DNA of 22,262 bases from the IMG/VR virus record IMGVR_UViG_2700989171_000001. One strand, written 5' to 3'. Below, piece after piece: positions 1 through 16,551 of this stretch. The position numbers were made by a program, and so were the translations under genes. Numbering within the stretch: the first letter of the stretch is position 1; every line of letters begins with the position of its first letter. Below the pieces are notes generated by a model, which did no database searches, was not told the origin of the DNA, and saw nothing but the letters and a program-made list of their open reading frames with translations. The DNA comes from a virus. Its lineage: Duplodnaviria; Heunggongvirae; Uroviricota; Caudoviricetes.

Positions 1-775
1 ATACGCGACATGCAGTATCATTCAGCGCAACGCCAATTGCGCGGTTTGATTTACTCTCTTCCGGGTTTATCCATGCCACCCGGCGCTGCATATCTATTTG
101 TTGCCATTCAAGGTTGATGATGTTCGAGCGTCTTAAGCCTGTTGCCAGTGCAAATTCAACAACAGACTTTAATGGCTCCGGACATTCATCAATCAGCCTT
201 TGTGCTTCATGGGGCTCCAGCCAGCGGATCCGTTTATTCTTTGGTTGAGGCACTTTAATAATTGGTGCCTTATCGAGCATTTTCCATTCACGCTCTGCGG
301 CTCTTAGCAGGGCCTTTATAAATGAAAGATGCGTAGCCTTCGTTGCAACGGACGCTGGTTTTGGCGTGTATTCTGGAACAGGTTTCCCTTTTTTTCTGCA
401 TGCTTCTGCCCTGAGTTTCCAGTTTTCCTCATGACGCCGGTTCGTCATTTTCTGCATTGCTGAATAAATTTTTGATTCAGTAATGTCTCTTAGTTGCATT
501 CCTGCGAAATGTTGAAGCCAGAATCCGATCCGGCTTTTGTCATCGTCCAGTGATTTTTTATGTGCTTTCTCTTCAAGCCACCTGACACACGCTTCCTCGA
601 ACGTTATATCAGGTATTTCACCAAGTTTGCTGACCCGCCATGCTTCAGCCTTTAGCTTGTCATGGAGTTCTGTCGCCTGCCTTTTGTCCTTTGTTCCAAG
701 AGACTGTTTAAATCTTTTACCGTTCGGCAATGTGAAACTGGCGTACCATATTTCACCTCTGCGGAAGAGTGACAT
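1..775 (-). CDS. int: Tyrosine integrase, P22-type; only the N-terminal ~258 codons are in the window
   Basis: Minus-strand ORF with ATG at 775..773; translation begins [33 protein letters not shown]..., recognised as the P22/e14-family integrase N-terminus. Absent from the ORF track because it runs off the window edge. Confidence 0.85.
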
Positions 776-1002
776 TTTCTTTCCTCTGTTATGCCATCAC
801 CCGCGCTCACCTTGATAGTATGCAGCGGAGACTGAAGCGCCGCAATGCAGGCTTGTCGCGTTGTGAGGTAAGGAGATTTTGGTTTAGTGGGGTCTTTGCG
901 TGTTGCCTGTAGGCGGCCTGTTCGTATCCAGTTGGTAGCGGTAGGTCTGGATATCTTGAGAAACTGACAGGCCTCATCGAGTGTGAGGCTGTATGATTCC
1001 AT
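652..1002 (-). CDS. xis: Excisionase, P22 Xis-like (116 aa)
   Basis: ATG at 1002..1000 preceded by AGAGG; [37 protein letters not shown]... is an AlpA/Xis-type helix-turn-helix; overlaps the int start by about 124 nt in another frame. Confidence 0.8.
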
Positions 1003-1252
1003 GGTTACCTCTGCTTTTTGAACGCATGTCACGTAACTTCTTAATGTGTTCTGCCGTTTCGATCTCTTCTGCTATCCGATCTGCATCAGCTTTATTCACA
1101 GGTTCAAAGTCATGATTAAAGCGGAACATGCTGGCGATACATGTTCTGCCTTTTCGGATGTAGTGAACTTTGTTGTGGGTAGAACGCAGGATTTTGCAGG
1201 GAGTGCCGTGGTGGTCGACGTACCAGGTGTTAGGAAAAATGATTCTGAACAT
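974..1252 (-). CDS. Hypothetical Cys/His-rich small protein of the exo-xis region (92 aa)
   Basis: ORF with GAGGTG RBS-like sequence before the ATG at 1252; several His/Cys residues (HH..C..H..H..C) suggest metal binding; position corresponds to the lambda ea8.5 slot, homology not verified. Confidence 0.5.
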   Translation of the reverse strand: MFRIIFPNTWYVDHHGTPCKILRSTHNKVHYIRKGRTCIASMFRFNHDFEPVNKADADRIAEEIETAEHIKKLRDMRSKSRGNHGIIQPHTR

Positions 1253-1299
1253 TTTTACACCTCAGTTGGACGATGTTGAAATTTGCTGCTTTGAGGCCA

Positions 1300-1518
1300 T
1301 CACAATCCCCATTGTTTGTTCTTAAGTTCGATCTCCTCCTGGCAACTTGCACAAGTCCGACAACCCTGAACGGCCAGGCGTCTTCGTTCATCTATGGGAT
1401 CGCCACACTTACAACAATGAGTGGCAGATATAGCCTGGTGGTTCAGACGACGCATTTTTATTGCTGTATTGCGCTGTAATTCTTCGATTTCTGATGCTGA
1501 ATCAATGATGTCTGCCAT
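1300..1518 (-). CDS. TraR/DksA-family C4 zinc-finger protein (72 aa), lambda orf73-like
   Basis: ATG at 1518..1516; CCKCGDPIDERRRLAVQGCRTCASCQ is a CxxC...CxxC motif with spacing typical of TraR/DksA C4 zinc fingers. Confidence 0.7.
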   Translation of the reverse strand: MADIIDSASEIEELQRNTAIKMRRLNHQAISATHCCKCGDPIDERRRLAVQGCRTCASCQEEIELKNKQWGL

Positions 1519-1571
1519 CTTCCATTAATCCCTGAATTATTGGTTAATACGCTTGAGGGTGAATGCGAATA

Positions 1572-1594
1572 ATAAAAAAGGAGCCTGTAGCTCC
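1572..1594 (-). terminator. Putative rho-independent terminator inside the leftward early operon
   Basis: Minus-strand transcript would read GGAGC-UACAG-GCUCC followed by a U6 tract (plus strand aaaaaaggagcctgtagctcc). Confidence 0.55.
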
Positions 1595-1616
1595 CTGATG
1601 ATTTTGCTTTTCATGT

Positions 1617-1832
1617 TCATCGCTCCTTAAAGACGCCGTTTAACATGCCGATCGCCAGGCTTAAATGAGTCGGTGTGAATCCCATCAGCGTTACCGTTTC
1701 GCGGTGCTTCTTCAGTACGCTACGGCAAATGTCATCGACGTTTTTATCCGGAAACTGCTGTCTGGCTTTTTTGATTTCAGAATTAGCCTGACGGGCAATG
1801 CTGCGAAGGGCGTTATTATGTTCTATTGTCAT
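1617..1832 (-). CDS. Hypothetical protein (71 aa)
   Basis: Internal ATG at 1832..1830 with GAGG 6 nt upstream; the longer 117-aa track ORF would overlap the upstream gene; stop lies 7 nt after the preceding gene. Confidence 0.5.
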   Translation of the reverse strand: MTIEHNNALRSIARQANSEIKKARQQFPDKNVDDICRSVLKKHRETVTLMGFTPTHLSLAIGMLNGVFKER

Positions 1833-1839
1833 ATTGGCC

Positions 1840-2592
1840 TCACACTTCGAATGCCAGTTGAGGGGTAAAGACGTCCCGTTCAGCGTTGTAATTAAGTGAA
1901 CTGGCACTGTTGAATGATTCAATGCGTTCCACAAGAACTTGCGTACGGGTTTCTTTACTTGCGGGAGCATATGGCGAACCTACCCAGGATTTGTCGATGC
2001 CTATATTTCTTGCGACGTTCGTGCTGTCTGCAGACGAAAGCGGTACATGAGTAAAAATGTCTTTATTTAACATCCGTAACCCATGAATCTTGGTGATTGG
2101 GTAGCCGTACTGATCTACAACATGACGTATAAGATCGCGTAGTTTAGCCCGACACGCTCTCGGTCGTTTTGCATCGTATTCCCCCATCGAGCCGATGCAG
2201 ACGCGGGGAAACTCATGGCACAGACGAATAAATCGCTCATCTGGTTCGTTCATGTGCCACACCGGAGCACCAATAAATTTACCGTGAGGCCATGCCGCAA
2301 TCAGGGCGTCATTCTCTTCACTGGTTCCGCCGATAACATCCGGGATAACCGCGAATGAGAAACGAGGGTGATTACCCCAGCGTTCAACAAATCTGTAATA
2401 TTCATTCCAGTCTACGGCCTTGTTTTTTGTCCAGAATGTGAATGCACCATTATCAAGAGCAAATGATTGGGTGACTTCGGAAGCCAGATCAATCTGAGCT
2501 GGATTAGCAAAACTGATGAATGCGTGTCTGCCTTTCCAGGCTTTCAACGCACAGGTATCGGGAGTTATTGGACCACCGTGAAAATGAATCAT
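1840..2592 (-). CDS. Hypothetical protein (250 aa), function unknown; possible (beta/alpha)-barrel enzyme
   Basis: Long ORF whose ATG (2592..2590) overlaps the stop of the upstream small ORF (ATGA coupling); conserved-looking acidic motifs ALDNGAF, IPDVIGG, SSADST. Confidence 0.6.
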   Translation of the reverse strand: MIHFHGGPITPDTCALKAWKGRHAFISFANPAQIDLASEVTQSFALDNGAFTFWTKNKAVDWNEYYRFVERWGNHPRFSFAVIPDVIGGTSEENDALIAAWPHGKFIGAPVWHMNEPDERFIRLCHEFPRVCIGSMGEYDAKRPRACRAKLRDLIRHVVDQYGYPITKIHGLRMLNKDIFTHVPLSSADSTNVARNIGIDKSWVGSPYAPASKETRTQVLVERIESFNSASSLNYNAERDVFTPQLAFEV

Positions 2593-2747
2593 ACACTCTC
2601 CCGTTTATTATTTATCTCCTCAGCCAGCCGCTGTGCTTTCAGTGGATTTCTGATAACAGAAAGGCCGGGAAATACCCAGCCTCGCTTTGTAACGGAGTAG
2701 ATGAAAGTGATCGCGCCTACCCGGATATTATCGCGAGGATGCTTCAT
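2589..2747 (-). CDS. Small protein (52 aa), lambda orf60a-like
   Basis: ATG at 2747..2745 overlaps the exo stop; translation [52 protein letters not shown]; below the ORF-track size cutoff. Confidence 0.5.
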
Positions 2748-3424
2748 CGCCATTGCTCCCCAAATACAAAACCAATTTCAGCCAGTGCCTCGTCCATTTT
2801 TTCGATGAACTCCGGCACCATCTCGTCAAAATTCGCCATGTACTTTTCATCCCGCTCAACCACGACATAATGCAGGCCTTCACGCTTCATGCGCGGGTCA
2901 TAGTTGGCAAAGTACCAGGCATCTTTTCGCGTCACCCACATGCTGTACTGCACCTGGGCCATGTAAGCCGACTTTATGGCCTCGAAACCACCGAGCCGGA
3001 ACTTCATGAAATCCCGGGAGGTAAACGGGCATTTCAGCTCAAGGCCATTGCCGTCACTGCATAAACCATCGGGAGAGCAGGCGGTGCGCATACTTTCGTC
3101 GCGATAGATGATCGGGGATTCAGTAACATTCACGTCGGAAGTGAACTCAAACAGGGTTCTGGCGTCGTTCTCGTACTGTTTTCCCCAGGCCAGTGCTTTA
3201 GCGTTAACTTCCGGAGCCACACTGGTGCAAACCTCGGCAAGCAGGGTGTGGAAGTAGGACATTTTCATGTCAGGCCACTTCTTTCCGGAGCGGGGTTTTG
3301 CTATCACGTTGTGAACTTCTGAAGCGGTGATGACGCCGAGCCGTAATTTGTGCCACGCATCATCCCCCTGTTCGACAGCTCTCACATCGATCCCGGTACG
3401 CTGTAGGATAATGTCCGGTGTCAT
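2744..3424 (-). CDS. exo: Lambda exonuclease (Red-alpha)
   Basis: 226-aa translation [50 protein letters not shown]... matches lambda Exo as I recall it, nearly residue for residue. Confidence 0.95.
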
Positions 3425-4206
3425 GCAGCCACCTTCTGTTCAGAGGCTTTCTGTTTCAGGAATCCAAGAGCTTTCACTGCTTCGGCCTGTGTCAGTTCTG
3501 ACGATGCGCGAATGTCGCGGCGAAATATCTGGGAACAGAGCGGCAATAAGTCGTCATCCCATGTTTTATCCAGGGCAATCAGCAGAGTGTTAATCTCCTG
3601 CATGGTTTCATCGTTAACCGGAGTGATGTCGCGTTCCGGCTGACGTTCTGCAGTGTATGCGGTATTTTCGACAATGCGCTCGGCTTCATCTTTGTCATAG
3701 ATACCAGCAAATCCGAAGGCCAGACGGGCACACTGAATCATGGCTTTATGCCGTAACATCCGTTTGGGATGCGACTGCCACGGCCCCGTGATTTCTCTGC
3801 CTTCGCGGGTTTTGAATGGTTCGCGGCGGCATTCATCCATCCACTCGGTAACGCAGATCGGATGATTGCGGTCCTTGCGGTAAATCCGGCATGTGCAGGA
3901 TTCATTGTCCTGCTCAAAGTCCATACCATCAAACTGCTGGTTTTCATTGATGATGCGGGACCAGCCATCAACGCCCACCACCGGAACGATGCCGTTCTGC
4001 TTATCAGGGAAGGCGTAAATTTCTTTCGTCCACGGATTAAGGCCGTACTGGTTGGCGACGATCAACAATGCGATGAACTGCGCATCGCTGGCATCACCTT
4101 TAAATGCCGTCTGGCGAAGAGTGGTGATCAGTTCCTGTGGGTCGACAGAATCCATGCCGACACGTTCAGCCAGCTTCCCTGCCAGCGTTGCGAGTGCTGT
4201 ACTCAT
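3421..4206 (-). CDS. bet: Lambda Bet (Red-beta) single-strand annealing protein
   Basis: 261-aa translation [59 protein letters not shown]... matches lambda Bet; 4-nt overlap with exo. Confidence 0.95.
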
Positions 4207-4211
4207 CCGTT

Positions 4212-4628
4212 TTATACCTCTGAATCAATATCAACCTGGTGGCGGGCAATAGTTTCAACCATGTACCGGATGTGTTCTGCCATGCGCTCCTGAAACTCAA
4301 CATCGTCATCAAACGCACGGGTAATGGCTTTTTTGCTGGCCCCGTGGCGTTGCAAATGATCGATGCATAGCGATTCAAACAGGTGCTGGGGCAGGCCTTT
4401 TTCCATGTCGTCTGCCAGTTCTGCCTCTTTCTCTTCACGGGCGATCTGCTGGTAGTGACGCGCCCAGCTCTGAGCCTCAATACGATCCTGAATGTAATAA
4501 GCGTTCATGGCTGAACTCCTGAAATAGCTGTGAAAATATCGCCCGCGAAATGCCGGGCTGATTAGGAAAACAGGAAAGGGAGTTAGTGAATGCTTTTGCT
4601 TGATCTCAGTTTCAGTATTAATATCCAT
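4212..4628 (-). CDS. gam: Lambda Gam, RecBCD inhibitor
   Basis: 138-aa translation [49 protein letters not shown]... matches lambda Gam. Confidence 0.95.
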
Positions 4629-4726
4629 TTTTTATAAGCGTCGACGGCCTCACGAAACATCTTTTCATCGCCAATAAAAGTGGCGATAGTGAATTTAGTC
4701 TGGATAGCCATAAGTGTTTGATCCAT
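4583..4726 (-). CDS. kil: Kil (host cell-division inhibitor), 47 aa
   Basis: ATG at 4726; [47 protein letters not shown] matches lambda Kil; overlaps gam start as in lambda. Confidence 0.85.
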
Positions 4727-4859
4727 TTTTTGGGACTCCTGGCTGATTAAGTATGTCGATAAGGCGTTTCCATCCGTCACGTAATTTACGGGTGATTCGT
4801 TCAAGTAAAGATTCGGAAGGGCAGCCAGCAACAGGCCACCCTGCAATGGCATATTGCAT
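4695..4859 (-). CDS. cIII: CIII (FtsH/HflB inhibitor), 54 aa
   Basis: ATG at 4859..4857; translation [54 protein letters not shown]; missed by the ORF track (under 60 aa, different frame from kil). Confidence 0.85.
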   Translation of the reverse strand: MQYAIAGWPVAGCPSESLLERITRKLRDGWKRLIDILNQPGVPKNGSNTYGYPD

Positions 4860-4931
4860 GGTGTGCTCCTTATTTATACATAACGAAAAACGCCTCGAGT
4901 GAAGCGTTATTGGTATGCGGTAACGCCGCGC

Positions 4932-5300
4932 TCAGGCGGCTTTGATAGTCATATCATCTGAATCAAATATTCCTGATGTATCGATATCGGTAATTCTTAT
5001 TCCTTCGCTACCATCCATTGGAGGCCATCCTTCCTGACCATTTCCATCATTCCAGTCGAACTCACACATAACACCATATGTATTTAAGTCGCTTGAAATT
5101 GCTATAAGCAGAGCATGTTGCGCCAGCATGGTTAATACAGCATTTAATACAGAGCCGTGTTTATTGAGTCGGTATTCAGAGTCTGACCAGAAATTATTAA
5201 TCTGGTGAAGTTTTTCCTCTGTCATTACGTCATGGTCGATTTCAATTTCTATTGATGCTTTCCAGTCGTAATCAATGATGTATTTTTTGATGTTTGACAT
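4932..5300 (-). CDS. ea10: Ea10-like protein (122 aa)
   Basis: MSNIKKYIIDYDWKASIEIEIDHDVMTEEKLHQINNFWSDSEYRLNKHG... matches lambda Ea10 as recalled. Confidence 0.8.
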   Translation of the reverse strand: MSNIKKYIIDYDWKASIEIEIDHDVMTEEKLHQINNFWSDSEYRLNKHGSVLNAVLTMLAQHALLIAISSDLNTYGVMCEFDWNDGNGQEGWPPMDGSEGIRITDIDTSGIFDSDDMTIKAA

Positions 5301-5318
5301 CTGTTCATATCCTCACAG

Positions 5319-5346
5319 ATAAAAAATCGCCCTCACATTAGAGGGC
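5319..5346 (-). terminator. Putative rho-independent terminator (tL-type) between ral and ea10
   Basis: Minus-strand RNA hairpin GCCCUC-UAAUGU-GAGGGC followed by a U6 run (plus strand aaaaaatcgccctcacattagagggc). Confidence 0.55.
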
Positions 5347-5482
5347 AAAGAAGATTTCCAATAATCAGAACAAGTCGGCTCCTGTTTAGTTACGAGCGAC
5401 ATTGCTCCGTGTATTCACTCGTTGGAATGAATACACAGTGCAGTGTTTATTCTGTTATTTATGCCAAAAATAAAGGCCACTA

Positions 5483-5683
5483 TCAGGCAGCTTTGTTGTT
5501 CTGTTTGTCAAGTTCTCTGGCAATCATTGCCGTCGTTCGTATTGCCCATTTATCGACATATTTCCCATCTTCCATTACAGGAAACATTTCTTCAGGCTTA
5601 ACCATGCATTCCGATTGCAGCTTGCATCCATTACATCGCTTGAATTGTCCACGCCATTGATTTTTATCAATAGTCGTAGTCAT
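5483..5683 (-). CDS. ral: Ral, restriction alleviation protein (66 aa)
   Basis: MTTTIDKNQWRGQFKRCNGCKLQSECMVKPEEMFPVMEDGKYVDKWAIRTTAMIARELDKQNNKAA matches lambda Ral. Confidence 0.9.
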   Translation of the reverse strand: MTTTIDKNQWRGQFKRCNGCKLQSECMVKPEEMFPVMEDGKYVDKWAIRTTAMIARELDKQNNKAA

Positions 5684-5753
5684 ACGGATAGTCCTGGTAT
5701 TGTTCCATCACATCCTGAGGATGCTCTTCGAACTCTTCAAATTCTTCTTCCAT
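5667..5753 (-). CDS. Small acidic ORF (28 aa), lambda orf28-like
   Basis: ATG at 5753..5751; MEEEFEEFEEHPQDVMEQYQDYPYDYDY; its stop overlaps the ral start (tATGActacgactattga). Confidence 0.45.
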   Translation of the reverse strand: MEEEFEEFEEHPQDVMEQYQDYPYDYDY

Positions 5754-5896
5754 ATATCACCTTAAATAGTGGATTGCGGTAGTAAAGATTGTGCCTGTCT
5801 TTTAACCACATCAGGCTCGGTGGTTCTCATGTACCCCTACAGCGAGAAATCGGATAAACTCTATTCACCCCTACAGAGAGCAAAAGAGAAACGCCG

Positions 5897-6478
5897 ATGA
5901 ACAACTCATGGTGGCAGGAACTAATGCATTTTTTCCTGCAAGGAATGACACTTAAACAGTTGATTCATATGCTAATCATTCTGATCATATTGATTATTGT
6001 TATGCCGGTAAGCGTAAAAGAATGGATAAACCTGCATAATCCAGAAATCCTTCCTCATTACTGGATGTATTACATCCTGTTGTTTTGCGTTAGCTATGTG
6101 CTTAACGGCGTTGTTAATTCCGCTTATCACGCTGTGACTGAAAGAATTGAGGTATCCGCTGCTCAGAAGCGCAAATCTAAAGAAGAAAAATATGTGCAAG
6201 ATTTGTTTGATTCATTAACTCTTGGAGAAAGAGCGTATTTGGCATTCGCTGTAGCCGCTAATAACCAGCTACAAACGGAAAAGGGAGCTCATGAATCAAT
6301 TTCATTGCTCAAAAAAGGACTCCTCGTTCGAAGGCCTCCTGCTGTTGGATATCCTGATACCGACCGTTTCGTTATCCCTGAAAGCTATAGACATGAGTGC
6401 TACATTAGGTTTGCCGGGAAGGCAGACAGCCTTATGGATGAACTTATCGCTCAGGATAAGCATGGCAAAAACAAGTAA
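5897..6478 (+). CDS. sieB: Superinfection exclusion protein B-like membrane protein (193 aa)
   Basis: Plus-strand ORF opposite to the leftward operon; hydrophobic segments LIHMLIILIILIIVMPV and YWMYYILLFCVSYVLNGVV; translation matches lambda/P22 SieB as recalled; AT-rich. Confidence 0.7.
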   Translation: MNNSWWQELMHFFLQGMTLKQLIHMLIILIILIIVMPVSVKEWINLHNPEILPHYWMYYILLFCVSYVLNGVVNSAYHAVTERIEVSAAQKRKSKEEKYVQDLFDSLTLGERAYLAFAVAANNQLQTEKGAHESISLLKKGLLVRRPPAVGYPDTDRFVIPESYRHECYIRFAGKADSLMDELIAQDKHGKNK

Positions 6479-6494
6479 TTAGCAAATGAATTTA

Positions 6495-6767
6495 TCATCT
6501 CGCCGTCAGTTGTTTTGATTTCCGGTAGCCTGCCGCGTAAATGGCTACGTTTGGCAGGCAAATACTTCCACTGCATTCATCTGCCTTCTTGCAGCGAAGG
6601 CTTCCGAGTGATGCTGCTTTGTCTGCTCTGACGCAACCAGAGAGCTTTAGCGCAATTTTTCGCGCCAGTCGCTGTTCTTGCATTGCCTGCTCACGTTGAG
6701 CCTGTCTGCGTGCTCTGCGGCGATTTCTGGCGTTATCGTTAGCCAGATATGTAATGACTACTGCCAT
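6495..6767 (-). CDS. N: N-type transcription antiterminator (90 aa) with N-terminal arginine-rich motif
   Basis: ATG at 6767 preceded by GGAGG; arginine-rich NARNRRRARRQAQREQ near the N-terminus; middle segment ARKIALKLSGCVRADKAASLGSLRCKK resembles phage 21 N and the C-terminal YAAGYRKSKQLTAR resembles P22 gene 24 protein, from memory. Confidence 0.8.
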   Translation of the reverse strand: MAVVITYLANDNARNRRRARRQAQREQAMQEQRLARKIALKLSGCVRADKAASLGSLRCKKADECSGSICLPNVAIYAAGYRKSKQLTAR

Positions 6768-6875
6768 GTTGACCTCCGATGATTGACTTTGGCGGTGACG
6801 CGCCGGGTGCTTATCTTCCGGTTGCCGTCGTGCAGCTGCACTTCACGTCACCCCAAAGCCAACTACTCTTTGGTT

Positions 6876-6915
6876 CCCGCATTTCGGCGGGACAATCCCA
6901 TCAATGTTAAAGAGC
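6876..6915 (-). promoter_or_regulatory. nutL: nutL (boxA plus boxB hairpin)
   Basis: Minus-strand reading GCTCTTTAACA (boxA-like), spacer, then CCCGCCGAAATGCGGG hairpin; the same boxA and boxB sequences recur on the plus strand downstream of cro. Confidence 0.65.
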
Positions 6916-6954
6916 CTGCCAATCTGTTCCGTTTGGCTACCAGCGTCCTGCTGA

Positions 6955-7050
6955 TGACTTAAATTTAAGATTTCTTTAATTGTTGGTCAAGGGTGTTTTT
7001 GAAGAAAACTTAAATTTTATTGCGAAGTTTAAGTTTTGCTTTGATTTTTA
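6955..7050 (-). promoter_or_regulatory. OL operators and pL promoter region
   Basis: Three P22-type operator-like repeats (aatttaagatttctttaatt; aacttaaattttattg; agtttaagttttgctttga); minus-strand -35 TTGACC (plus 6986..6991) and -10 TTAAAT 17 bp downstream. Confidence 0.5.
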
Positions 7051-7054
7051 AAGG

Positions 7055-7080
7055 AAAGAAAAAAAGGGGCGAATGCCCCT
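7055..7080 (-). terminator. Putative rho-independent terminator at the 3' end of c2
   Basis: Minus-strand hairpin AGGGGC-AUUC-GCCCCU followed by U-rich tract (plus strand aaaaaaaggggcgaatgcccct); overlaps the c2 stop codon. Confidence 0.6.
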
Positions 7081-7730
7081 TATGGAAGGTTTGCTATTTT
7101 TGCATCGACAACTACACCGATGATTTTGCAGTTCCCGTTGATCTCAATCATCGGATATTGTGGGTTAAGTGGTTTTAGAAACCTTCTACCAGCATCAATA
7201 ACTAACTTCTTGAAAGTTGCCTCGTTTTCTCCTTCGAGCTTTGCCACTACCAGCTTCCCATTACGAGGTTCTACTTCAGGATCAACAAGTATTATCATCC
7301 CTTCCGGGATGCTAAGACCGGCTGGAGCCGTCATCGAATCACCCTTTACGTCCAGCCAAAACGAATCTTCTGAACAATCTACGGTTGTATCGTACCAGTT
7401 ATCTATTGCACGCTTATGATATGGCTCTACAGCTTCCATCCAACATCCTGCGCTTACCCAACTAATTAGAGGATACGAACCTCTTGGATCATGCCTGCTG
7501 TGATAGGCAATGTTTGAAAGACTATCTTCTCCTTTCAACAAGTAATCAGGGGAGCACTGTAAAGCCTTGGCTAAAGCCAATAGGTTTTCGCCATTGGGCT
7601 CAGTTTCAGAACGCTCCCATTGGGAAATAGCAACATTAGACACGCCAACCATCTTGCCAAGGGCAGCCTGCCTAATCTTAAGTTCTTTTCTGCGAGCGCG
7701 AATACGCTCACCCATCAGTTGTGTATTCAT
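7080..7730 (-). CDS. c2: P22 c2-type (CI-like) repressor, 216 aa
   Basis: MNTQLMGERIRARRKELKIRQAALGKMVGVSNVAISQWERSETEPNGENLLALAKALQCSPDYLLKGE... matches P22 C2 repressor (N-terminal HTH, C-terminal LexA-like autocleavage domain) as recalled. Confidence 0.95.
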   Translation of the reverse strand: MNTQLMGERIRARRKELKIRQAALGKMVGVSNVAISQWERSETEPNGENLLALAKALQCSPDYLLKGEDSLSNIAYHSRHDPRGSYPLISWVSAGCWMEAVEPYHKRAIDNWYDTTVDCSEDSFWLDVKGDSMTAPAGLSIPEGMIILVDPEVEPRNGKLVVAKLEGENEATFKKLVIDAGRRFLKPLNPQYPMIEINGNCKIIGVVVDAKIANLP

Positions 7731-7734
7731 AGTT

Positions 7735-7805
7735 AAGACATCTTAAATAAACTTGACTTAAGATTCCTTTGATAGATAATTTAAGTATTCTTTAATTTGG
7801 TGGCG
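7735..7805. promoter_or_regulatory. OR operators with pR and pRM
   Basis: Three operator-like repeats with TTAAG....CTTTAA half-sites (catcttaaataaacttgac; cttaagattcctttgat; aatttaagtattctttaatt); plus-strand -35 TTGACT (7753..7758), 16-nt spacer, -10 GATAAT (7775..7780) upstream of cro. Confidence 0.6.
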
Positions 7806-7810
7806 AGTCT

Positions 7811-7996
7811 ATGTACAAGAAAGATGTTATCGACCACTTCGGAACCCAGCGTGCGGTAGCTAAAGCGTTAGGCATTAGCGATGCAGCAGTCTCTCAGTGG
7901 AAGGAAGTCATCCCAGAGAAAGACGCCTATCGACTGGAAGTCGTTACAGCTGGCGCCCTGAAGTATCAAGAAAGTGCTTATCGCAAAGCGGCATAA
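7811..7996 (+). CDS. cro: Cro (61 aa), P22-type
   Basis: MYKKDVIDHFGTQRAVAKALGISDAAVSQWKEVIPEKDAYRLEVVTAGALKYQESAYRKAA; HTH, matches P22 Cro as recalled. Confidence 0.9.
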   Translation: MYKKDVIDHFGTQRAVAKALGISDAAVSQWKEVIPEKDAYRLEVVTAGALKYQESAYRKAA

Positions 7997-8003
7997 GCAA
8001 ATT

Positions 8004-8045
8004 GCTCTTTAACAGTCATGGTCCTTATTCCCGCCGAAATGCGGG
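8004..8045 (+). promoter_or_regulatory. nutR: nutR (boxA plus boxB hairpin)
   Basis: GCTCTTTAACA at 8004..8014 and hairpin CCCGCCGAAATGCGGG at 8030..8045, identical to the nutL elements. Confidence 0.65.
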
Positions 8046-8104
8046 AATACAACGCGCATCAGTTGGTGCGTATAACTTCTTATTTGTTAAGGAAATACTT
8101 ACAT

Positions 8105-8383
8105 ATGCAACTTACAAGTACTCGCAAGAAAGCGAATGCAATCACAAGCAACATCCTGAATCGAATTGCTGTACGTGGTCAGCGAAAGGTTGCTGATGCA
8201 TTAGGGATTAATGAATCGCAAATTTCGCGATGGAAAGACAGCTTTATCCCAAAGATGGCCATGCTTCTGGCTGTGCTGGAGTGGGGTGTTGAAGACGAGG
8301 AATTAGCAAAGCTAGCAAAGAAAGTAGCCATGGTGCTGACAAAAGAAAAGCCTCAAGACTGCTGCAACAGTTTTGAGGCCTGA
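8105..8383 (+). CDS. c1: C1 (lambda CII-like transcriptional activator), 92 aa
   Basis: ATG at 8105; MQLTSTRKKANAITSNILNRIAVRGQRKVADALGINESQISRWKDSFIPKMAMLLAVLEWGV... matches P22 C1/CII family as recalled. Confidence 0.85.
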   Translation: MQLTSTRKKANAITSNILNRIAVRGQRKVADALGINESQISRWKDSFIPKMAMLLAVLEWGVEDEELAKLAKKVAMVLTKEKPQDCCNSFEA

Positions 8384-8417
8384 TGTAGAAAGACTGGATC
8401 AATCCACAGGAGTCATT

Positions 8418-9317
8418 ATGACAAATACAGCAAAAATACTCAACTTCGGCAGAGGTAACTTTACCGGACAGGAGCGTAATGTGGCAGATCGCGATGATGG
8501 TTACGCCAGACTATCAAATATGCTGCTTGAGGCTTATTCAGGCGCAGATCTGACCAAGCGACAATTTAAAGTGCTGCTTGCCATTCTGCGTAAAACCTAT
8601 GGGTGGAATAAACCAATGGACAGAATCACCGATTCTCAACTTAGCGAGATTACAAAGTTACCTGTCAAACGGTGCAATGAAGCCAAGTTAGAACTCGTCA
8701 GAATGAATATTATCAAGCAGCAAGGCGGCATGTTTGGACCAAATAAAAACATCTCAGAATGGTGTATCCCTCAAAACGAGGGAAAATCCCCTAAAACGAG
8801 GGATAAAACATCCCTCAAATTGGGGGATTGCTATCCCTCAAAACAGGGGGACACAAAAGACACTATTACAAAAGAAAAAAGAAAAGATTATTCGTCAGAG
8901 AATTCTGGCGAATCCTCTGACCAGCCAGAAAACGACCTTTCTGTGGTGAAACCGGATGCTGCAATTCAGAGCGGCAGCAAGTGGGGGACAGCAGAAGACC
9001 TGACCGCCGCAGAGTGGATGTTTGACATGGTGAAGACCATCGCGCCATCAGCCAGAAAACCGAATTTTGCTGGGTGGGCTAACGATATCCGCCTGATGCG
9101 TGAACGTGACGGACGTAACCATCGCGACATGTGTGTACTTTTCCGCTGGGCCTGCCAGGACAACTTCTGGTCCGGTAACGTGCTTAGCCCGGCCAAACTC
9201 CGCGACAAGTGGACCCAGCTCGAAATCAACCGTAACAAGCAACAGGCAGTCGTGACAGCCAGCAAACCAAAACTCGACCTGACAAACACAGACTGGATTT
9301 ACGGGGTGGATCTATGA
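8418..9317 (+). CDS. O: Replication initiator O (lambda-type)
   Basis: ATG at 8418 with GGAG RBS; MTNTAKILNFGRGNFTGQERNVADRDDGYARLSNMLLEAYSGADLTKRQFKVLLAILRKTYGW... matches lambda O. Confidence 0.95.
   Translation: MTNTAKILNFGRGNFTGQERNVADRDDGYARLSNMLLEAYSGADLTKRQFKVLLAILRKTYGWNKPMDRITDSQLSEITKLPVKRCNEAKLELVRMNIIKQQGGMFGPNKNISEWCIPQNEGKSPKTRDKTSLKLGDCYPSKQGDTKDTITKEKRKDYSSENSGESSDQPENDLSVVKPDAAIQSGSKWGTAEDLTAAEWMFDMVKTIAPSARKPNFAGWANDIRLMRERDGRNHRDMCVLFRWACQDNFWSGNVLSPAKLRDKWTQLEINRNKQQAVVTASKPKLDLTNTDWIYGVDL
8766..8900 (+). repeat. Lambda-type replication origin: four iterons plus AT-rich segment inside O
   Basis: Four tandem about 19-20 bp repeats (atccctcaaaacgagggaaa / atcccctaaaacgagggata / atccctcaaattgggggatt / atccctcaaaacagggggac) followed by aaagaaaaaagaaaagattatt. 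Confidence 0.85.
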
Positions 9318-10015
9318 AAAACATCGCCGCACAGATGGTTAACTTTGACCGTGAGCAGATGCGTCGGATCGCCAACAACATGCCGGAACAGTACGACGAA
9401 AAGCCGCAGGTACAGCAGGTAGCGCAGATCATCAACGGTGTGTTCAGCCAGTTACTGGCAACTTTCCCGGCGAGCCTGGCTAACCGTGACCAGAACGAAC
9501 TGAACGAAATCCGCCGCCAGTGGGTTCTGGCTTTCCGGGAAAACGGGATCACCACAATGGAACAGGTTAACGCAGGAATGCGCGTAGCCCGTCGGCAGAA
9601 TCGACCATTTCTGCCATCACCCGGGCAGTTTGTTGCATGGTGCCGGGAAGAAGCATCCGTTATCGCCGGACTGCCAAACGTCAGCGAGCTGGTTGATATG
9701 GTTTACGAGTATTGCCGGAAGCGAGGCCTGTATCCGGATGCGGAGTCTTATCCGTGGAAATCAAACGCGCACTACTGGCTGGTTACCAACCTGTATCAGA
9801 ACATGCGGGCCAATGCGCTTACTGATGCGGAATTACGCCGTAAGGCCGCAGATGAGCTTGTCCATATGACTGCGAGAATTAACCGTGGTGAGGCGATCCC
9901 TGAACCAGTAAAACAACTTCCTGTCATGGGCGGTAGACCTCTAAATCGTGCACAGGCTCTGGCGAAGATCGCAGAAATCAAAGCTAAGTTCGGACTGAAA
10001 GGAGCAAGTGTATGA
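9314..10015 (+). CDS. P: Replication protein P (DnaB helicase loader)
   Basis: ATGA overlap with O stop; MKNIAAQMVNFDREQMRRIANNMPEQYDEKPQVQQVAQIINGVFSQLLATFPASLANRDQNE... matches lambda P. Confidence 0.95.
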   Translation: MKNIAAQMVNFDREQMRRIANNMPEQYDEKPQVQQVAQIINGVFSQLLATFPASLANRDQNELNEIRRQWVLAFRENGITTMEQVNAGMRVARRQNRPFLPSPGQFVAWCREEASVIAGLPNVSELVDMVYEYCRKRGLYPDAESYPWKSNAHYWLVTNLYQNMRANALTDAELRRKAADELVHMTARINRGEAIPEPVKQLPVMGGRPLNRAQALAKIAEIKAKFGLKGASV

Positions 10016-10302
10016 CGGGCAAAGAGGCAATTATTCATTACCTGGGGACGCATAATAGCTTCTGTGCGCCGGACGTTGCCGCGCTAACAGGCGCAACAGT
10101 AACCAGCATAAATCAGGCCGCGGCTAAAATGGCACGGGCAGGTCTTCTGGTTATCGAAGGTAAGGTCTGGCGAACGGTGTATTACCGGTTTGCTACCAGG
10201 GAAGAACGGGAAGGAAAGATGAGCACGAACCTGGTTTTTAAGGAGTGTCGCCAGAGTGCCGCGATGAAACGGGTATTGGCGGTATATGGAGTTAAAAGAT
10301 GA
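10012..10302 (+). CDS. ren: Ren (Rex exclusion escape), 96 aa
   Basis: ATGA overlap with P; MTGKEAIIHYLGTHNSFCAPDVAALTGATVTSINQAAAKMARAGLLVIEGKVWRTVYYRF... matches lambda Ren. Confidence 0.9.
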   Translation: MTGKEAIIHYLGTHNSFCAPDVAALTGATVTSINQAAAKMARAGLLVIEGKVWRTVYYRFATREEREGKMSTNLVFKECRQSAAMKRVLAVYGVKR

Positions 10303-10317
10303 CCATCTACATTACTG

Positions 10318-10346
10318 AGCTAATAACAGGCCTGCTGGTAATCGCA
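10318..10346 (+). terminator. Putative rho-independent terminator (tR2-like) between ren and ninB
   Basis: AGGCCTGC-tggtaatc-GCAGGCCT followed by TTTTTATTT. Confidence 0.65.
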
Positions 10347-10375
10347 GGCCTTTTTATTTGGGGGAGAGGGAAGCC

Positions 10376-10816
10376 ATGAAAAAACTAACCTTTGAAATTC
10401 GATCTCCAGCACATCAGCAAAACGCTATTCACGCAGTACAGCAAATCCTTCCAGACCCAACCAAACCAATCGTAGTAACCATTCAGGAACGCAACCGCAG
10501 CTTAGACCAAAACAGGAAACTATGGGCCTGCTTAGGTGACGTCTCTCGTCAGGTTGAATGGCATGGTCGCTGGCTGGATGCAGAAAGCTGGAAGTGTGTG
10601 TTTACCGCAGCATTAAAGCAGCAGGACGTTGTTCCTAACCTTGCCGGGAATGGCTTTGTGGTAATAGGCCAGTCAACCAGCAGGATGCGTGTAGGCGAAT
10701 TTGCGGAGCTATTAGAGCTTATACAGGCATTCGGTACAGAGCGTGGCGTTAAGTGGTCAGACGAAGCGAGACTGGCTCTGGAGTGGAAAGCGAGATGGGG
10801 AGATCGGGCTGCATGA
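10376..10816 (+). CDS. ninB: NinB (Orf family recombination mediator), 146 aa
   Basis: ATG at 10376 with GGGGGAGAGGG RBS; MKKLTFEIRSPAHQQNAIHAVQQILPDPTKPIVVTIQERNRSLDQNRKLWACLGDVSRQVEWHGRW... matches lambda NinB. Confidence 0.9.
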   Translation: MKKLTFEIRSPAHQQNAIHAVQQILPDPTKPIVVTIQERNRSLDQNRKLWACLGDVSRQVEWHGRWLDAESWKCVFTAALKQQDVVPNLAGNGFVVIGQSTSRMRVGEFAELLELIQAFGTERGVKWSDEARLALEWKARWGDRAA

Positions 10817-11340
10817 CTATCAAATCAAATACGCCAGCACACGACAAGGACTGCTGGCAAACGCCGCTTTGGCTTTTTGATGCACTGGATATTGAGTTTG
10901 GATTCTGGCTGGATTCGGCAGCGAGCGACAAAAATGCTCTGTGTGCTCACTGGCTAACTGAGGCCGACGACGCGCTCAATTCTGAGTGGGTAAGCCACGG
11001 TGCAATCTGGAATAACCCACCGTACAGCAATATCAGGCCGTGGGTGGAAAAAGTCGCTGAGCAGTGCATACAACAGCGACAGACGGTAGTTATGCTTGTG
11101 CCAGAGGATATGTCAGTCGGATGGTTCAGCAAGGCTCTGGAGAGTGTCGACGAAGTTCGCATTATCACTGATGGACGGATTAATTTTATCGAACCATCGA
11201 CAGGGCTGGAGAAGAAGGGAAACAGCAAAGGCTCCATGCTGCTGATTTGGCGACCGTTCATCAGTCCTCGACGGATGTTTACTACCGTATCCAAAGCGGC
11301 ATTGATGGCGATCGGGCAGGGCGTCAGGAGGGCGGCATGA
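10813..11340 (+). CDS. Phage-type DNA N6-adenine methyltransferase (Dam-like), 175 aa
   Basis: ATGA-coupled to ninB; motif [10 protein letters not shown] is the (D/N)PPY catalytic motif of N6-adenine methyltransferases; occupies the lambda ninC/ninD position. Confidence 0.75.
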
Positions 11341-11519
11341 GACGACAGCGACGAAGTATCACCGACATCATCTGCGAAAACTGCAAATACCTTCCAACGA
11401 AACGCTCCAGAAATAAACGCAAGCCAATCCCAAAAGAATCTGACGTAAAAACCTTCAACTACACGGCTCACCTGTGGGATATCCGGTGGCTAAGACATCG
11501 TGCGAGGAATACAAGGTGA
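11337..11519 (+). CDS. ninE: NinE (60 aa)
   Basis: ATGA-coupled to the methyltransferase; [60 protein letters not shown]. Confidence 0.75.
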
Positions 11520-11686
11520 TTGACCCAAATCGAAGTTACGAACAAGAAAGCGTCGAGCGGGCTTTAACGTGCGCTAATTGCGGTCAGAAGCTGCATGTGC
11601 TGGAAGTTCACGTGTGTGAGTACTGCTGTGCAGAGCTGATGAGCGATTCGAATAGCTCGATGCACGAGGAAGAAGATGATGGCTAA
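11516..11686 (+). CDS. ninF: NinF (about 56 aa), Cys-rich
   Basis: Probable GTG start at 11516 overlapping the ninE stop (ggTGAtt); ...[55 protein letters not shown]; the upstream ATG at 11474 would overlap ninE by 46 nt. Confidence 0.6.
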
Positions 11687-12290
11687 ACCAGCGCGAAGAC
11701 GATGTAAAAACGATGAATGTCGGGAATGGTTTCACCCTGCATTCGCTAATCAGTGGTGGTGCTCTCCAGAGTGTGGAACCAAGATAGCACTCGAACGACG
11801 AAGTAAAGAACGCGAAAAAGCGGAAAAAGCAGCAGAGAAGAAACGACGACGAGAGGAGCAGAAACAGAAAGATAAACTTAAGATTAGAAAACTCGCCTTA
11901 AAGCCCCGCAGTTACTGGATTAAACAAGCCCAACAAGCCGTAAACGCCTTCATCAGAGAAAGAGACCGCGACTTACCATGTATCTCTTGCGGAACGCTCA
12001 CGTCTGCTCAGTGGGATGCCGGACATTACCGGACAACTGCTGCGGCACCTCAACTCCGATTTGATGAACGCAATATTCACAAGCAATGCGTGGTGTGCAA
12101 CCAGCACAAAAGCGGAAATCTCGTTCCGTATCGCGTCGAACTGATTAGCCGCATCGGGCAGGAAGCAGTAGACGAAATCGAATCAAACCATAACCGCCAT
12201 CGCTGGACTGTTGAAGAGTGCAGGGCCATCAAGGCGGAGTATCAGCAGAAACTCAAAGACCTGCGAAACAGCAGAAGTGAGGCCGCATGA
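11676..12290 (+). CDS. ninG: NinG / Rap recombination endonuclease (204 aa)
   Basis: [63 protein letters not shown]... matches lambda NinG (Rap). Confidence 0.9.
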
Positions 12291-12333
12291 CGTTCTCAGT
12301 AAAAACCATTCCAGATCACAAGGGAGAAGGCGC

Positions 12334-12822
12334 ATGGGCATAAGAGAACTAAACCTCACCAAAGAACAGCACGAGTGGCTGAATGGCTGGCTTGAACTGT
12401 GGGGCGCATGGGTTTATTCAGGTCGTCTGGAAAAGCGCATGAGCAGCGTAATAGCGAAGTTCATGGAGAGCGTAGAGCCGGGAAGAGTTATGACAAGGCC
12501 AATGTGTAATGATGATGATGGAATGTTGATTTCTCAGGTCGTCGATTCCGTCATGTACATTGACAAGAAAGCCTTTGGCATCCTCCTCAGCTACTACGCC
12601 CACGGCTCTTCCAAGCACGCCATTGCATCTTACTATCATCGCGTCGCAAGACCTCGCAAGATGTTATGCCGGGGCGGCGGGCGCATTCAAAAACCATCGC
12701 TCGCAACCTGTCGACGGGAAGTTGACGAAATCATCAATGCCTCGTTGTTTATGATTTACCCGGTTCTGGATAGTGCGTTTAAAAACCGGAAACGTGTAGA
12801 GAAAATTAAACATATAGCATAG
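12334..12822 (+). CDS. Q: Late-gene antiterminator Q, phage 21 / QuuD-like family (162 aa)
   Basis: ATG at 12334 with AAGGGAGAAGG RBS directly after ninG (no ninH/ninI); MGIRELNLTKEQHEWLNGWLELWGAWVYSGRLEKR...PMCNDDDGML... resembles Q21-type antiterminators rather than lambda Q; sits immediately upstream of phage-21-type lysis genes. Confidence 0.7.
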   Translation: MGIRELNLTKEQHEWLNGWLELWGAWVYSGRLEKRMSSVIAKFMESVEPGRVMTRPMCNDDDGMLISQVVDSVMYIDKKAFGILLSYYAHGSSKHAIASYYHRVARPRKMLCRGGGRIQKPSLATCRREVDEIINASLFMIYPVLDSAFKNRKRVEKIKHIA

Positions 12823-12825
12823 AAC

Positions 12826-12913
12826 GTGTTGACATCATTGAGCAAATGAGCAACACTATTCGCATAAGCTGCCGTTAGTGACTCTTAAGTTGCAACGGTG
12901 GCTTTTTTTATTT
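12826..12913 (+). promoter_or_regulatory. Putative late promoter pR' / qut region with promoter-proximal terminator-like T-run
   Basis: TTGACA at 12830..12835 directly after Q; downstream GC-containing inverted repeat (gccgtt...aacggtggc, includes palindrome gttgcaac) followed by T8 at 12903..12913; the stem is imperfect. Confidence 0.4.
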
Positions 12914-12988
12914 GGGTCAGTCGTATAAAGGTCATTACGGAAGGCTGTTAACCTTCTTATCGTGGTTCGAGTCCACGCTGTCCCGCCA
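12914..12988 (+). tRNA. tRNA-like gene, anticodon GTT (Asn) by manual fold; possibly degenerate
   Basis: 75 nt ending in CCA; perfect anticodon stem gaagg/ccttc with loop ctGTTaa; T-arm cgtgg-ttcgagt-ccacg; but one mismatch in the acceptor stem (gggtcag/ctgtccc) and a 3-bp D-stem. Confidence 0.45.
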
Positions 12989-12993
12989 AATAT

Positions 12994-13069
12994 GCTGGTT
13001 TAGCTCCAATGGTAGAGCGGTCGCCTTGTAAGCGAATGGGTAGCGGTTCAAGTCCGTTAACCAGCACCA
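12994..13069 (+). tRNA. tRNA, anticodon TGT (Thr) by manual fold
   Basis: Perfect 7-bp acceptor stem gctggtt/aaccagc, D-arm gctc-caatggta-gagc, anticodon loop ctTGTaa, T-arm agcgg-ttcaagt-ccgtt, discriminator A plus CCA. Confidence 0.65.
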
Positions 13070-13187
13070 TAACTGAGCCGTAGCCACTGGATGTCCTGAA
13101 TTCATCAGTGATAGTTATGCTGCGGTCTTCTTTTTCTCCCTTCCCAATATAAGAACTACGCAATCCGTTACTGGCGGAGGCGTTGCT

Positions 13188-13403
13188 ATGAAATCAATGG
13201 ACAAAATCTCAACTGGCATTGCCTACGGAACATCCGCTGGTAGTGCGGGATACTGGTTTTTGCAGTGGTTGGATCAGGTCAGTCCATCACAGTGGGCTGC
13301 GATTGGGGTGCTTGGAAGCCTTGTGTTGGGCTTTCTCACCTATCTGACAAATCTGTACTTCAAAATCAGAGAAGACAGAAGAAAGGCTGCGAGAGGTGAA
13401 TAA
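13188..13403 (+). CDS. S: Pinholin / antiholin, phage 21 S21-type (71 aa, dual start Met1/Met4)
   Basis: GGAGG RBS; [71 protein letters not shown] matches S21 as recalled; two transmembrane segments. Confidence 0.9.
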
Positions 13404-13900
13404 TGCCTCCATCATTACGAAAAGCCGTTGCTGCGGCTATTGGTGGCGGGGCTATTGCTATAGCATCTGTGTTAATCACTGGCCCAAGTGGTAACGATGG
13501 TCTGGAAGGCGTCAGCTACATACCATATAAAGATATCGTTGGTGTATGGACTGTATGTTACGGGCATACCGGAAAAGACATTATGCTCGGTAAAACGTAT
13601 ACCGAAGCAGAATGCAAAGCCCTCCTGAATAAAGACCTTGCCACTGTCGCCAGACAAATTAACCCGTACATCAAAGTCGATATACCGGAAACAACGCGCG
13701 GCGCTCTTTACTCGTTCGTTTACAACGTTGGTGCTGGAAATTTCAGAACATCGACGCTTCTTCGCAAAATAAACCAGGGCGATATCAAAGGCGCATGTGA
13801 TCAGCTACGGCGCTGGACATACGCTGGCGGTAAGCAATGGAAAGGTCTCATGACTCGTCGTGAGATTGAGCGTGAAGTCTGTTTATGGGGGAAGCAATGA
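13403..13900 (+). CDS. R: SAR endolysin (lysozyme with N-terminal signal-anchor-release segment), R21-type
   Basis: TAATG overlap with S; N-terminal [20 protein letters not shown] hydrophobic Gly/Ala-rich SAR segment followed by a lysozyme-like domain; matches phage 21 R as recalled. Confidence 0.9.
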
Positions 13901-14289
13901 AGATCCACTACAAGATAATTATCTTCGCGTTCGCATTGAGCGTACTGGGCGTCATCGTTTGGTCAGCAAGCCATTATCACGATAAGTATCAGGCGGAACG
14001 GCTACGCGCAGATGCTGCCGAGCAGAACGCCAACGCCGCCGAAGCGATCACCGCCAACGTCATTCGGTCTGTGAACATCATCAACGCCATTGCAGAGGCC
14101 AACCAGGATGCAAAGAACCAGATCACACTGGAGTCACAGGGAGCCCAAGCAGATATCAAAGTGGCTATTGAGAATGATGACTGCGCTCATCGGCCTGTGC
14201 CTCCTGCAACTGCTCACCGGCTGCGGCAATTCGCGGACAGTTTACGTACCGGTATCGGTAGTGCCTCTACCGGCAAACCTGACAGCTGA
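13897..14289 (+). CDS. Rz: Spanin, inner-membrane subunit (Rz-like), 130 aa
   Basis: ATGA overlap with R; N-terminal transmembrane segment [16 protein letters not shown] followed by charged, coiled-coil-like periplasmic region. Confidence 0.7.
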
Positions 14290-14431
14290 GACGCAACAGC
14301 CAGCCATTCCCGAACCGCTGACCTATGGGGCCAGTCTGGAGCTGAATGTTAGCCTGCTATCGGCGCTGGGTCAGTGCAACATCGATAAGGCTAGTATCAG
14401 GAAGATTGAAGAGTCTCGGACCTCTCTGTAG
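14174..14431 (+). CDS. Rz1: Spanin, outer-membrane lipoprotein subunit (Rz1-like), overlapped architecture
   Basis: +1-frame ORF beginning inside Rz with lipoprotein signal [17 protein letters not shown] (lipobox LLTGC); Pro-rich; extends about 140 nt beyond the Rz stop. Confidence 0.6.
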   Translation: MMTALIGLCLLQLLTGCGNSRTVYVPVSVVPLPANLTAETQQPAIPEPLTYGASLELNVSLLSALGQCNIDKASIRKIEESRTSL

Positions 14432-14551
14432 AAGACTATTTTGCTGCCATGAAGAAGCTTTATATCTTTGGTCAATACATCGAACAGATCAGATAATTCT
14501 TATGTGATTGATGCTATATTTATCCCCTATTTAAACATGGGAGTTACGGAT

Positions 14552-15352: not shown

Positions 15353-15358
15353 CACAAG

Positions 15359-15379
15359 CCGCCTCCGGACGGTTTTTTT
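15359..15379 (+). terminator. Putative rho-independent terminator after the protease gene
   Basis: Short GC hairpin (ccgcc-tccg-gacgg, one mismatch) immediately followed by T7 (ggttttttta), 7 nt after the stop. Confidence 0.5.
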
Positions 15380-15393
15380 ATTGCTATTACAAA

Positions 15394-15415
15394 AGCCACT
15401 CCATGCCGAGTGGCT
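15394..15415 (-). terminator. Putative terminator-like hairpin, oriented for the minus strand
   Basis: Perfect 8-bp stem agccactc/gagtggct with 6-nt loop; on the minus strand it is followed by UUUU then an A-rich tract. Confidence 0.4.
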
Positions 15416-15485
15416 TTGATAATGGCTTATACCCTACACGGGATAACTTAACTGATATCCCAACAAGCGGATAAAGAGGTTCTCA

Positions 15486-15611: not shown

Positions 15612-15700
15612 AATAACTCCATTAGGAGAATGTGGAACCATTACACTTTGAGCCGTTAACTGATATTGATAAAGGTAAATAATATCGTGGTTAAGGCTTT

Positions 15701-15973: not shown

Positions 15974-15997
15974 TTTCAATCCAATTGAGACTTTGCC

Positions 15998-16549: not shown

Positions 16550-16551
16550 GT

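Follow-up and report, generated by a model that had tools for sequence, protein, structure and literature searches.

A small zinc-less member of the phage DpdA family, encoded by a 775-bp cassette in the early region of an SfI/lambda-like phage

Background

With 7-deazaguanine modifications in their DNA, phages overcome many restriction systems, and newly found defence glycosylases in turn target these modifications. The DpdA of phage 9g, acting alone in E. coli, was found to place dPreQ0 in plasmid DNA from host preQ0, at 790 per 10^6 nucleotides (nt) (Hutinet et al. 2019, PMC6884629). In the same survey, phages classed as 'DpdA-only' formed the largest DpdA group (76 of 182), and Supplementary Data 1 lists among them Shigella phage SfI (NC_027339, YP_009147480) together with HK106, SPN3UB, BTP1, SEN1, PEAT2 and 7-11; the DNA of phage 7-11 contained dADG at about 0.02% of G (PMC6884629). 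The DNA of Pantoea phage MED16, a singleton phage, contains dADG at about 0.13% of G, with negligible dPreQ0. A preprint on E. coli HS phages mentions DpdA only for a Queuovirinae phage with a full dPreQ0 gene cluster, and the phages concerned in the DNA-glycosylase preprint also encode queC and queD. In this study, we analysed a stretch of Caudoviricetes DNA of 22,262 nt (IMG/VR virus record IMGVR_UViG_2700989171_000001, called the window throughout its full length), with a focus on a minus-strand open reading frame (ORF) at 1840-2592 that encodes a protein of 250 amino acids (aa). We propose that this protein is probably a singleton, zinc-less mini-DpdA, which would depend on a host precursor for a sparse 7-deazaguanine marking of the phage DNA.

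The 250-aa protein belongs to the singleton phage DpdA family

The 250-aa protein is firmly a member of the singleton phage DpdA family. It is 100% identical to gp34 of SfI (SfI_0034, YP_009147480; ORF at 23519-24271 of NC_027339), and it was assigned to the PHROG phrog_887, 'queuine tRNA-ribosyltransferase', with E=4e-99, the same PHROG that takes the DpdA of 9g (E=2e-98) and that of Salmonella phage 7-11 (E=7e-74). BLASTP gave 39% identity to MED16 DpdA (E=3e-47), 36% to 7-11 DpdA (E=1e-36) and 21% over 154 aa to 9g DpdA (E=6e-8), the last alignment pairing LDNGAF with LDSGAF, H170 with 9g H196 and SSADS with SCDS, and the BTP1 and SPN3UB proteins are 68% identical to it.

A preliminary description of this DNA, made from its letters and ORF translations, had called the protein one of unknown function and had offered a tRNA-guanine transglycosylase (TGT)- or DpdA-like enzyme as a speculative possibility. 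The guess was right, as shown by the match to phrog_887, the family of the validated 9g DpdA, and by the listing of the identical protein as DpdA in PMC6884629. The identity is correct but not new, having been catalogued bioinformatically in 2019, and 'unknown function' does not hold, the ORF being annotated already in RefSeq viral: its label in NC_027339 is 'queuine tRNA-ribosyltransferase', and 'hypothetical protein' is the label of the same protein in GenBank JX509734 and in bacterial genomes annotated by PGAP. What the present analysis adds is the exact boundaries of the cassette relative to lambda, a structural model and residue-conservation statistics.

An exhaustive search with the family profile returned 6791 clusters at E<=1e-3, among them 148 newly returned representatives with a median length of 245 aa; the small form is the norm. 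Two database entries deserve mention in their own right. Protein P0005 (415 aa) is 86% identical over the full length of the query and may be a fusion or have a mis-called start. The 1719-bp record OR850331.1, labelled 'Staphylococcus phage SA 1298 Kay', is probably mislabelled or a contaminant, its homologue sharing 67.6% identity with the query, the same value as for the Salmonella P22-like phages.

Predicted fold and candidate active site

A first AlphaFold2 (AF2) model, built on a 20-sequence alignment, reached a pLDDT of 63 and gave weak generic TIM barrels only in Foldseek, and was discarded. The second model, which used an alignment of 67 sequences across three clades, has a pLDDT of 93.4, a pTM of 0.90 and eight beta-alpha units. 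Foldseek identified this model as a TIM barrel; among the 50 matches listed, the best query TM-score was that of ArcTGT (0.56), and the E-values do not discriminate. The model is structurally similar to TGT, ArcTGT, QTRT2 and Cap10. The preliminary description had proposed a (beta/alpha)-barrel and a Foldseek comparison as its check, and the outcome agrees with that proposal. It had also pointed to the motifs ALDNGAF, IPDVIGG and SSADST, all of which are present and contain the family-invariant D47, D85 and D189. The codons of the candidate catalytic residues are as follows.

2454-2452, minus strand: D47
2442-2440, minus strand: F51
2340-2338, minus strand: D85
2256-2254, minus strand: H113
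2085-2083, minus strand: H170
2028-2026, minus strand: D189

In the AF2 model, strands 3, 4, 5, 7 and 8 carry D47, D85, H113, H170 and D189, respectively, at their C-terminal ends. Conservation was counted over 122 representatives taken from different 50%-identity clusters and 18-65% identical to the query: D47 is kept in 119, D85 in 120, H113 in 121, H170 in 115 and D189 in 111 of them, and position 51 is F or Y in 119. H170, which corresponds to 9g H196, is the conserved histidine that tells DpdA from DpdA2.

Published active sites were available for comparison from a bacterial DpdA and from Cap10. In the bacterial enzyme (SmDpdA), D95 is the acid/base with F99 as gate, D130 and H181 recognize the base, D256 is the nucleophile and zinc is held by a CxCx2Cx22H site; in Cap10, D248 and H226 form the catalytic pair and D73/S74, D122 and K154 read the base. 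The candidate residues of the 250-aa protein share their order and a similar spacing with both sites: D47 and F51 are separated by three residues exactly as D95 and F99 are, and the H170...D189 arrangement resembles H226/D248 of Cap10. A CxCxxC zinc motif was found in none of 496 family proteins, the query and the validated 9g-type DpdAs included, and since those validated enzymes also lack it, the zinc site does not define the phage branch.

The cassette and its surroundings in comparison with lambda and SfI

Positions 1-13900 of the window are 97.8% identical to SfI, and the morphogenesis half differs. The early region is that of a lambdoid temperate phage, with the minus-strand order gam, bet, exo, DUF1317, 250-aa ORF, 71-aa ORF, 27-aa ORF, TraR/DksA, DUF4222 and xis. 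Its features are listed below.

1815-2589: non-lambda cassette with the DpdA ORF, 775 bp; flanks about 97% identical to lambda (blastn)
1840-2592, minus strand: 250-aa DpdA-family ORF (singleton, mini TIM-barrel guanine transglycosylase homologue)
2598-2602, minus strand: GGGAG Shine-Dalgarno sequence of the 250-aa ORF, within the 3' end of the DUF1317 gene, seen directly in the DNA that precedes the start codon at 2592
2589-2747, minus strand: orf60a-like DUF1317 gene, 52 aa; Pfam PF07026, E=2.5e-31; 90% identical to lambda orf60a over 52 aa
3424-2744, minus strand: exo
4206-3421, minus strand: bet
4628-4212, minus strand: gam
1617-1832, minus strand: 71-aa ORF (phrog_303, unknown function), with a GAGG Shine-Dalgarno sequence at 1841-1838 that overlaps the stop of the 250-aa ORF
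1537-1620, minus strand: 27-aa hydrophobic ORF, SfI gp32; terminator-like hairpin and T-run at 1596-1578
1300-1518, minus strand: TraR/DksA zinc-finger gene
1252-974, minus strand: DUF4222 gene, between the TraR-like gene and xis

Alignment with lambda by blastn set the boundaries of the cassette: window 1323-1814 corresponds to lambda 30418-30910 (96.8%) and window 2590-4296 to lambda 31194-32900 (97.1%). The cassette stands in place of lambda 30911-31193, a stretch that by the lambda annotation holds orf63 almost in full and the 5' portion of orf61. The remainder of orf61 survives as the 71-aa ORF, whose start is equivalent to orf61 Met33 and which reads on into the downstream frame because a poly-A run has six A in the window and seven in lambda. 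No significant counterpart of lambda ea22 or ea8.5 was found in the window. The preliminary description had the trio formed by the orf60a-like, 250-aa and 71-aa ORFs replace orf61, orf63 and ea22 of lambda, which is right only in part: the DNA replaced is that of nearly all of orf63 and the 5' part of orf61, and the rest of orf61 has been kept as the 71-aa ORF.

The lambda annotation itself can be read anew at two places. Orf61 (NC_001416 30839-31024) appears to have been cut short by a frameshift, the longer gene being intact at window 1617-1832, and the TraR/DksA gene has a near-identical 73-aa counterpart in lambda (lambda 30392-30613; 1593-1814 of locus L096) that is unannotated in NC_001416.

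The junctions that had led to the view of a translationally coupled trio are exact: the stop of the DUF1317 gene and the ATG of the 250-aa ORF form an ATGA overlap, and the 71-aa ORF begins 7 nt past the stop of the 250-aa ORF. Coupling is not peculiar to these three genes, as further ATGA overlaps join bet to exo, exo to DUF1317 and the 71-aa ORF to the 27-aa ORF (1620-1537); it is a trait of the whole pL-operon segment and marks no trio. The DUF1317 ORF, with its stop at 2589, starts at ATG 2747 (52 aa) or, alternatively, at an upstream ATG at 2753 (54 aa), and DUF1317/orf60a is a common lambdoid gene without specificity for DpdA. The protein of the 71-aa ORF has an ankyrin-repeat-like motif, GFTPTHLSLAIGMLNG, and its PGAP name varies between 'cell division protein ZapA' and 'hypothetical protein'; its ankyrin-repeat matches against PDB sequences, the sole matches there, were judged spurious.

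Elsewhere in the window, the nin region carries at 10753-11340 (plus strand) a DNA methyltransferase (phrog_111, E=1.4e-87), a second DNA-modifying gene besides DpdA. The late half (13900-22262) gave no SfI match in the nucleotide search; there, a plus-strand ORF at 14468-15352, which follows the lysis genes and precedes the small terminase subunit, encodes a 294-aa phrog_7688 protein of unknown function. The large terminase subunit showed a weak family match only (phrog_2, E=1e-31).

Distribution, gene context and precursor genes

PHROGs of the folE, queC, queD, queE and yhhQ types were absent from the window ORFs of at least 90 aa, within which the earlier statement that the window holds no 7-deazaguanine precursor genes is confirmed, and no preQ0/G+ pathway genes were found in a PGAP-annotated prophage copy. 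The DpdA cassette occurs in 100 of 5426 complete E. coli genomes (about 2%), in copies at least 99% identical, and 95 of the 100 have a copy covering at least 80% of the gene. The 71-aa gene was found in 3248 of the same 5426 genomes (about 60%, as DNA match at megablast level), so that it is not a dedicated partner of DpdA.

In the contexts examined, the DpdA gene always lies within the early replication/recombination modules of temperate phages. The BTP1 homologue is located between an Ead/Ea22-like gene and EaA, genes of a divergent clade (P0158) in E. coli prophages, with the recombination module on one side and xis/int on the other, a 67%-identical homologue behind the GpA replication gene of an Aeromonas P2-like prophage, and another homologue in the early operon of a Yersinia prophage. 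The neighbours differ each time, and no que genes were found within 6 kb at these related loci. The sole 7-deazaguanine-linked neighbour among the contexts examined is that of Pectobacterium phage PEAT2, in which a short gene of the Vut_1/YhhQ family (a preQ0 transporter family; 2531-2998 of locus L004) overlaps the start of the DpdA homologue. In BTP1, the eaA gene directly downstream of the DpdA homologue (3767-4732 of locus L005) encodes a dATP/dGTP pyrophosphohydrolase domain (PF04447, E=4e-48). In E. coli EF7-18-58 (locus L089, NZ_CP068591.1 1216606-1233262), the DpdA prophage is integrated beside tRNA-Thr, on the downstream side of proA, and has an Avs2 defence gene as its neighbour. It is decayed, the holin being truncated and the baseplate reduced to fragments, yet its DpdA ORF is intact.

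Discussion

A predicted sequence of events, modelled on characterised relatives, can be put forward for the 250-aa protein as a host-precursor-dependent DpdA. Its gene is carried by a self-contained mobile cassette of 775 bp; in this SfI/lambda-like temperate phage, the cassette follows the recombination genes of the pL operon and precedes xis. From this position the enzyme would be made early in lytic growth, translationally coupled to exo and orf60a. A target guanine of the double-stranded phage DNA may then be flipped into the C-terminal pocket of the barrel and exchanged by a TGT-type double displacement, with D189 as putative nucleophile and D47 as putative acid/base, F51 as a gate, D85 and H113 reading the base and H170 positioning D189, so that a 7-deazaguanine base would take the place of guanine. 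As the phage is without folE, queD, queE and queC, this base, preQ0 or its amide ADG, would have to come from the host queuosine pathway. The expected product is sparse, motif-specific dPreQ0 or dADG, at a level of some 0.01-0.3% of the G in virion DNA. Such a mark may counter particular host nucleases and would not amount to a bulk hypermodification.

Several points weigh against this proposal. The tested singletons carry trace modification only, and the base found is dADG in place of dPreQ0, with no nitrile hydratase known in these phages; MED16 DNA with its dADG was not protected from any restriction enzyme tried, and phage Orion DNA was without modification (PMC6884629). Like the whole phage branch, its validated members included, the 250-aa protein has neither the structural zinc site nor Ins8, the large DNA-binding insertion of bacterial DpdA, and the equivalence of the candidate residues to D95/D130/D256 of SmDpdA and to those of Cap10 is suggested by strand position, topology and spacing, not by superposition. 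Neither the protein nor the family profiles had a significant match in Pfam TGT, NCBIfam, the PADLOC DpdA model or PDB sequences, PHROGs alone among the libraries searched (Pfam, NCBIfam, PADLOC, PDB sequences and PHROGs) recognizing the family. In hhalign, the family profile was not significant against E. coli Tgt alone and reached E=0.4 against a profile of 80 gamma-proteobacterial TGT sequences, a shallow one (Neff 2.2) used without secondary structure; in the sole segment aligned in the latter comparison, D47 stands opposite D89 of E. coli Tgt. A published HHpred search with MED16 DpdA, which is 39% identical to the 250-aa protein, matched TGT 2ASH with 99.2% probability.

The trace levels and the lack of protection in the tested relatives keep alive another explanation, which we regard as possible but doubtful: the mini-DpdA may have kept the TGT fold and pocket with a diverged activity, the trace dADG of its relatives being a side reaction. 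Such a protein might be a DNA glycosylase or exchange a different base, it might bind or sense 7-deazaguanine, or it might assist in host takeover or counter a defence. Hutinet et al. (PMC6884629) saw the singleton DpdAs fall into clusters of their own and noted that these may have 'functionally diverged', the modification in 7-11 and MED16 amounts to 0.02-0.13% of G, with MED16 unprotected from restriction, and the gene is scattered in a moron-like manner over accessory regions of unrelated temperate phages. However, the candidate catalytic and base-reading residues are kept in 91-99% of the 122 divergent representatives, which argues for a retained transglycosylase-type chemistry, the 9g DpdA of the same PHROG is a proven preQ0 insertase, and no alternative partner genes are conserved nearby. 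The RefSeq and PHROG name would instead suit an enzyme directed at tRNA, altering the queuosine status of host tRNA during infection; the founding members of the superfamily are tRNA enzymes, and the model is structurally similar to TGT, ArcTGT and QTRT2. We consider this improbable, as the protein is without the zinc site and the C-terminal insertion that contact tRNA in TGTs and has no Pfam TGT match, the tested phage-family members all act on DNA, and the name was inherited from automatic annotation.

The resemblance to Cap10 raises the question of whether the protein handles protein-linked 7-deazaguanine (deazaguanylation), as in type IV CBASS (cyclic oligonucleotide-based antiphage signalling system). 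This seems most unlikely: neither the window nor the related loci examined yielded a partner of the Cap9/QueC-like or CD-NTase type, there was no PADLOC match of any kind, and the identity is 10% to Cap10 versus 15% to DpdA. The gene arrangement, with its ATGA overlap and 7-nt spacing, could also be taken to mean that the orf60a-like, 250-aa and 71-aa ORFs work as one module, with the two small proteins serving DpdA as cofactors, the more so as bacterial DpdA needs its partner DpdB. Distribution and context speak against the 71-aa and DUF1317 proteins as partners of DpdA, and we give the module very little credence: the 71-aa gene is present in 3248 versus 100 of the 5426 E. coli genomes for DpdA, lambda has orf60a and orf61-related sequence without any DpdA, the homologues of BTP1, P22-like and P2-like phages and the Yersinia prophage have entirely different neighbours, coupling spans the whole operon, and the 9g DpdA works alone in E. 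coli.

If the 250-aa protein is a DNA-modifying DpdA as we propose, one tentative and rather unlikely extension is that singleton mini-DpdAs represent a distinct activity, which hijacks the host queuosine pathway and lays down a sparse, motif-specific dADG mark by a single 250-aa zinc-less enzyme. The QueC intermediate ADG might be inserted directly, or preQ0 might be hydrated by the enzyme, and either route would explain dADG without DpdC. Should this be true, the purpose of the mark would not be general anti-restriction; it might, for example, let the phage evade one specific defence or tell self from non-self when the prophage is induced. With its DpdA gene confined to a clean cassette of 775 bp and an early operon that otherwise resembles that of lambda, the SfI-type E. 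coli/Shigella prophage is a convenient genetic system for the role of singleton DpdAs. The gain is a better annotation of a protein that PGAP calls 'hypothetical protein', and no new kind of system.

Comparison with known systems

Among described systems, Cap10 of type IV CBASS (9NTN) has two partners, a deazaguanylated CD-NTase that it binds and the QueC-like Cap9; such partners were not found here, and the identity is 10%. The bacterial DpdA of Salmonella Montevideo (7UI4) has 413 aa, with four insertions, the 128-residue Ins8 among them, and a zinc site of the form CxCx2Cx22H. It depends on the DpdB ATPase and belongs to a restriction-modification island, and none of these features is seen in the 250-aa protein or its locus; no DpdB-like gene was found among the window ORFs scanned, and the PADLOC DpdA model had no match. 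Closer are the DpdA1 enzymes of 9g and CAjan, validated preQ0-DNA transglycosylases: 9g DpdA falls in phrog_887, the LD(N/S)GAF, H-G and (A/C)DS motifs are shared, and 9g DpdA works without a DpdB-type ATPase. They differ in that the identity is 16-21% only, the 9g protein is longer (317 aa), being extended at both the N and the C terminus, and has folE/queD/queE/gat-queC as gene neighbours, and these phages replace a large share of their G (about 32% in CAjan), whereas relatives of the window protein modify less than 0.2% of G and the window phage is without pathway genes.

The exo-xis region of lambda offers the same slot with flanks of about 97% identity, and the orf60a homologue, the orf61-derived ORF and the TraR-like ORF are kept; the window differs in having the DpdA cassette for nearly all of orf63 and the 5' part of orf61, no significant counterpart of ea22 or ea8.5, and a DUF4222 gene before xis. 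The closest system is the group of singleton gamma-proteobacterial DpdAs (Hutinet group 3 and MED16), proteins of about 235-265 aa that have no zinc motif and are encoded by phages without preQ0 genes; from this group the 250-aa protein does not differ, being itself a member.

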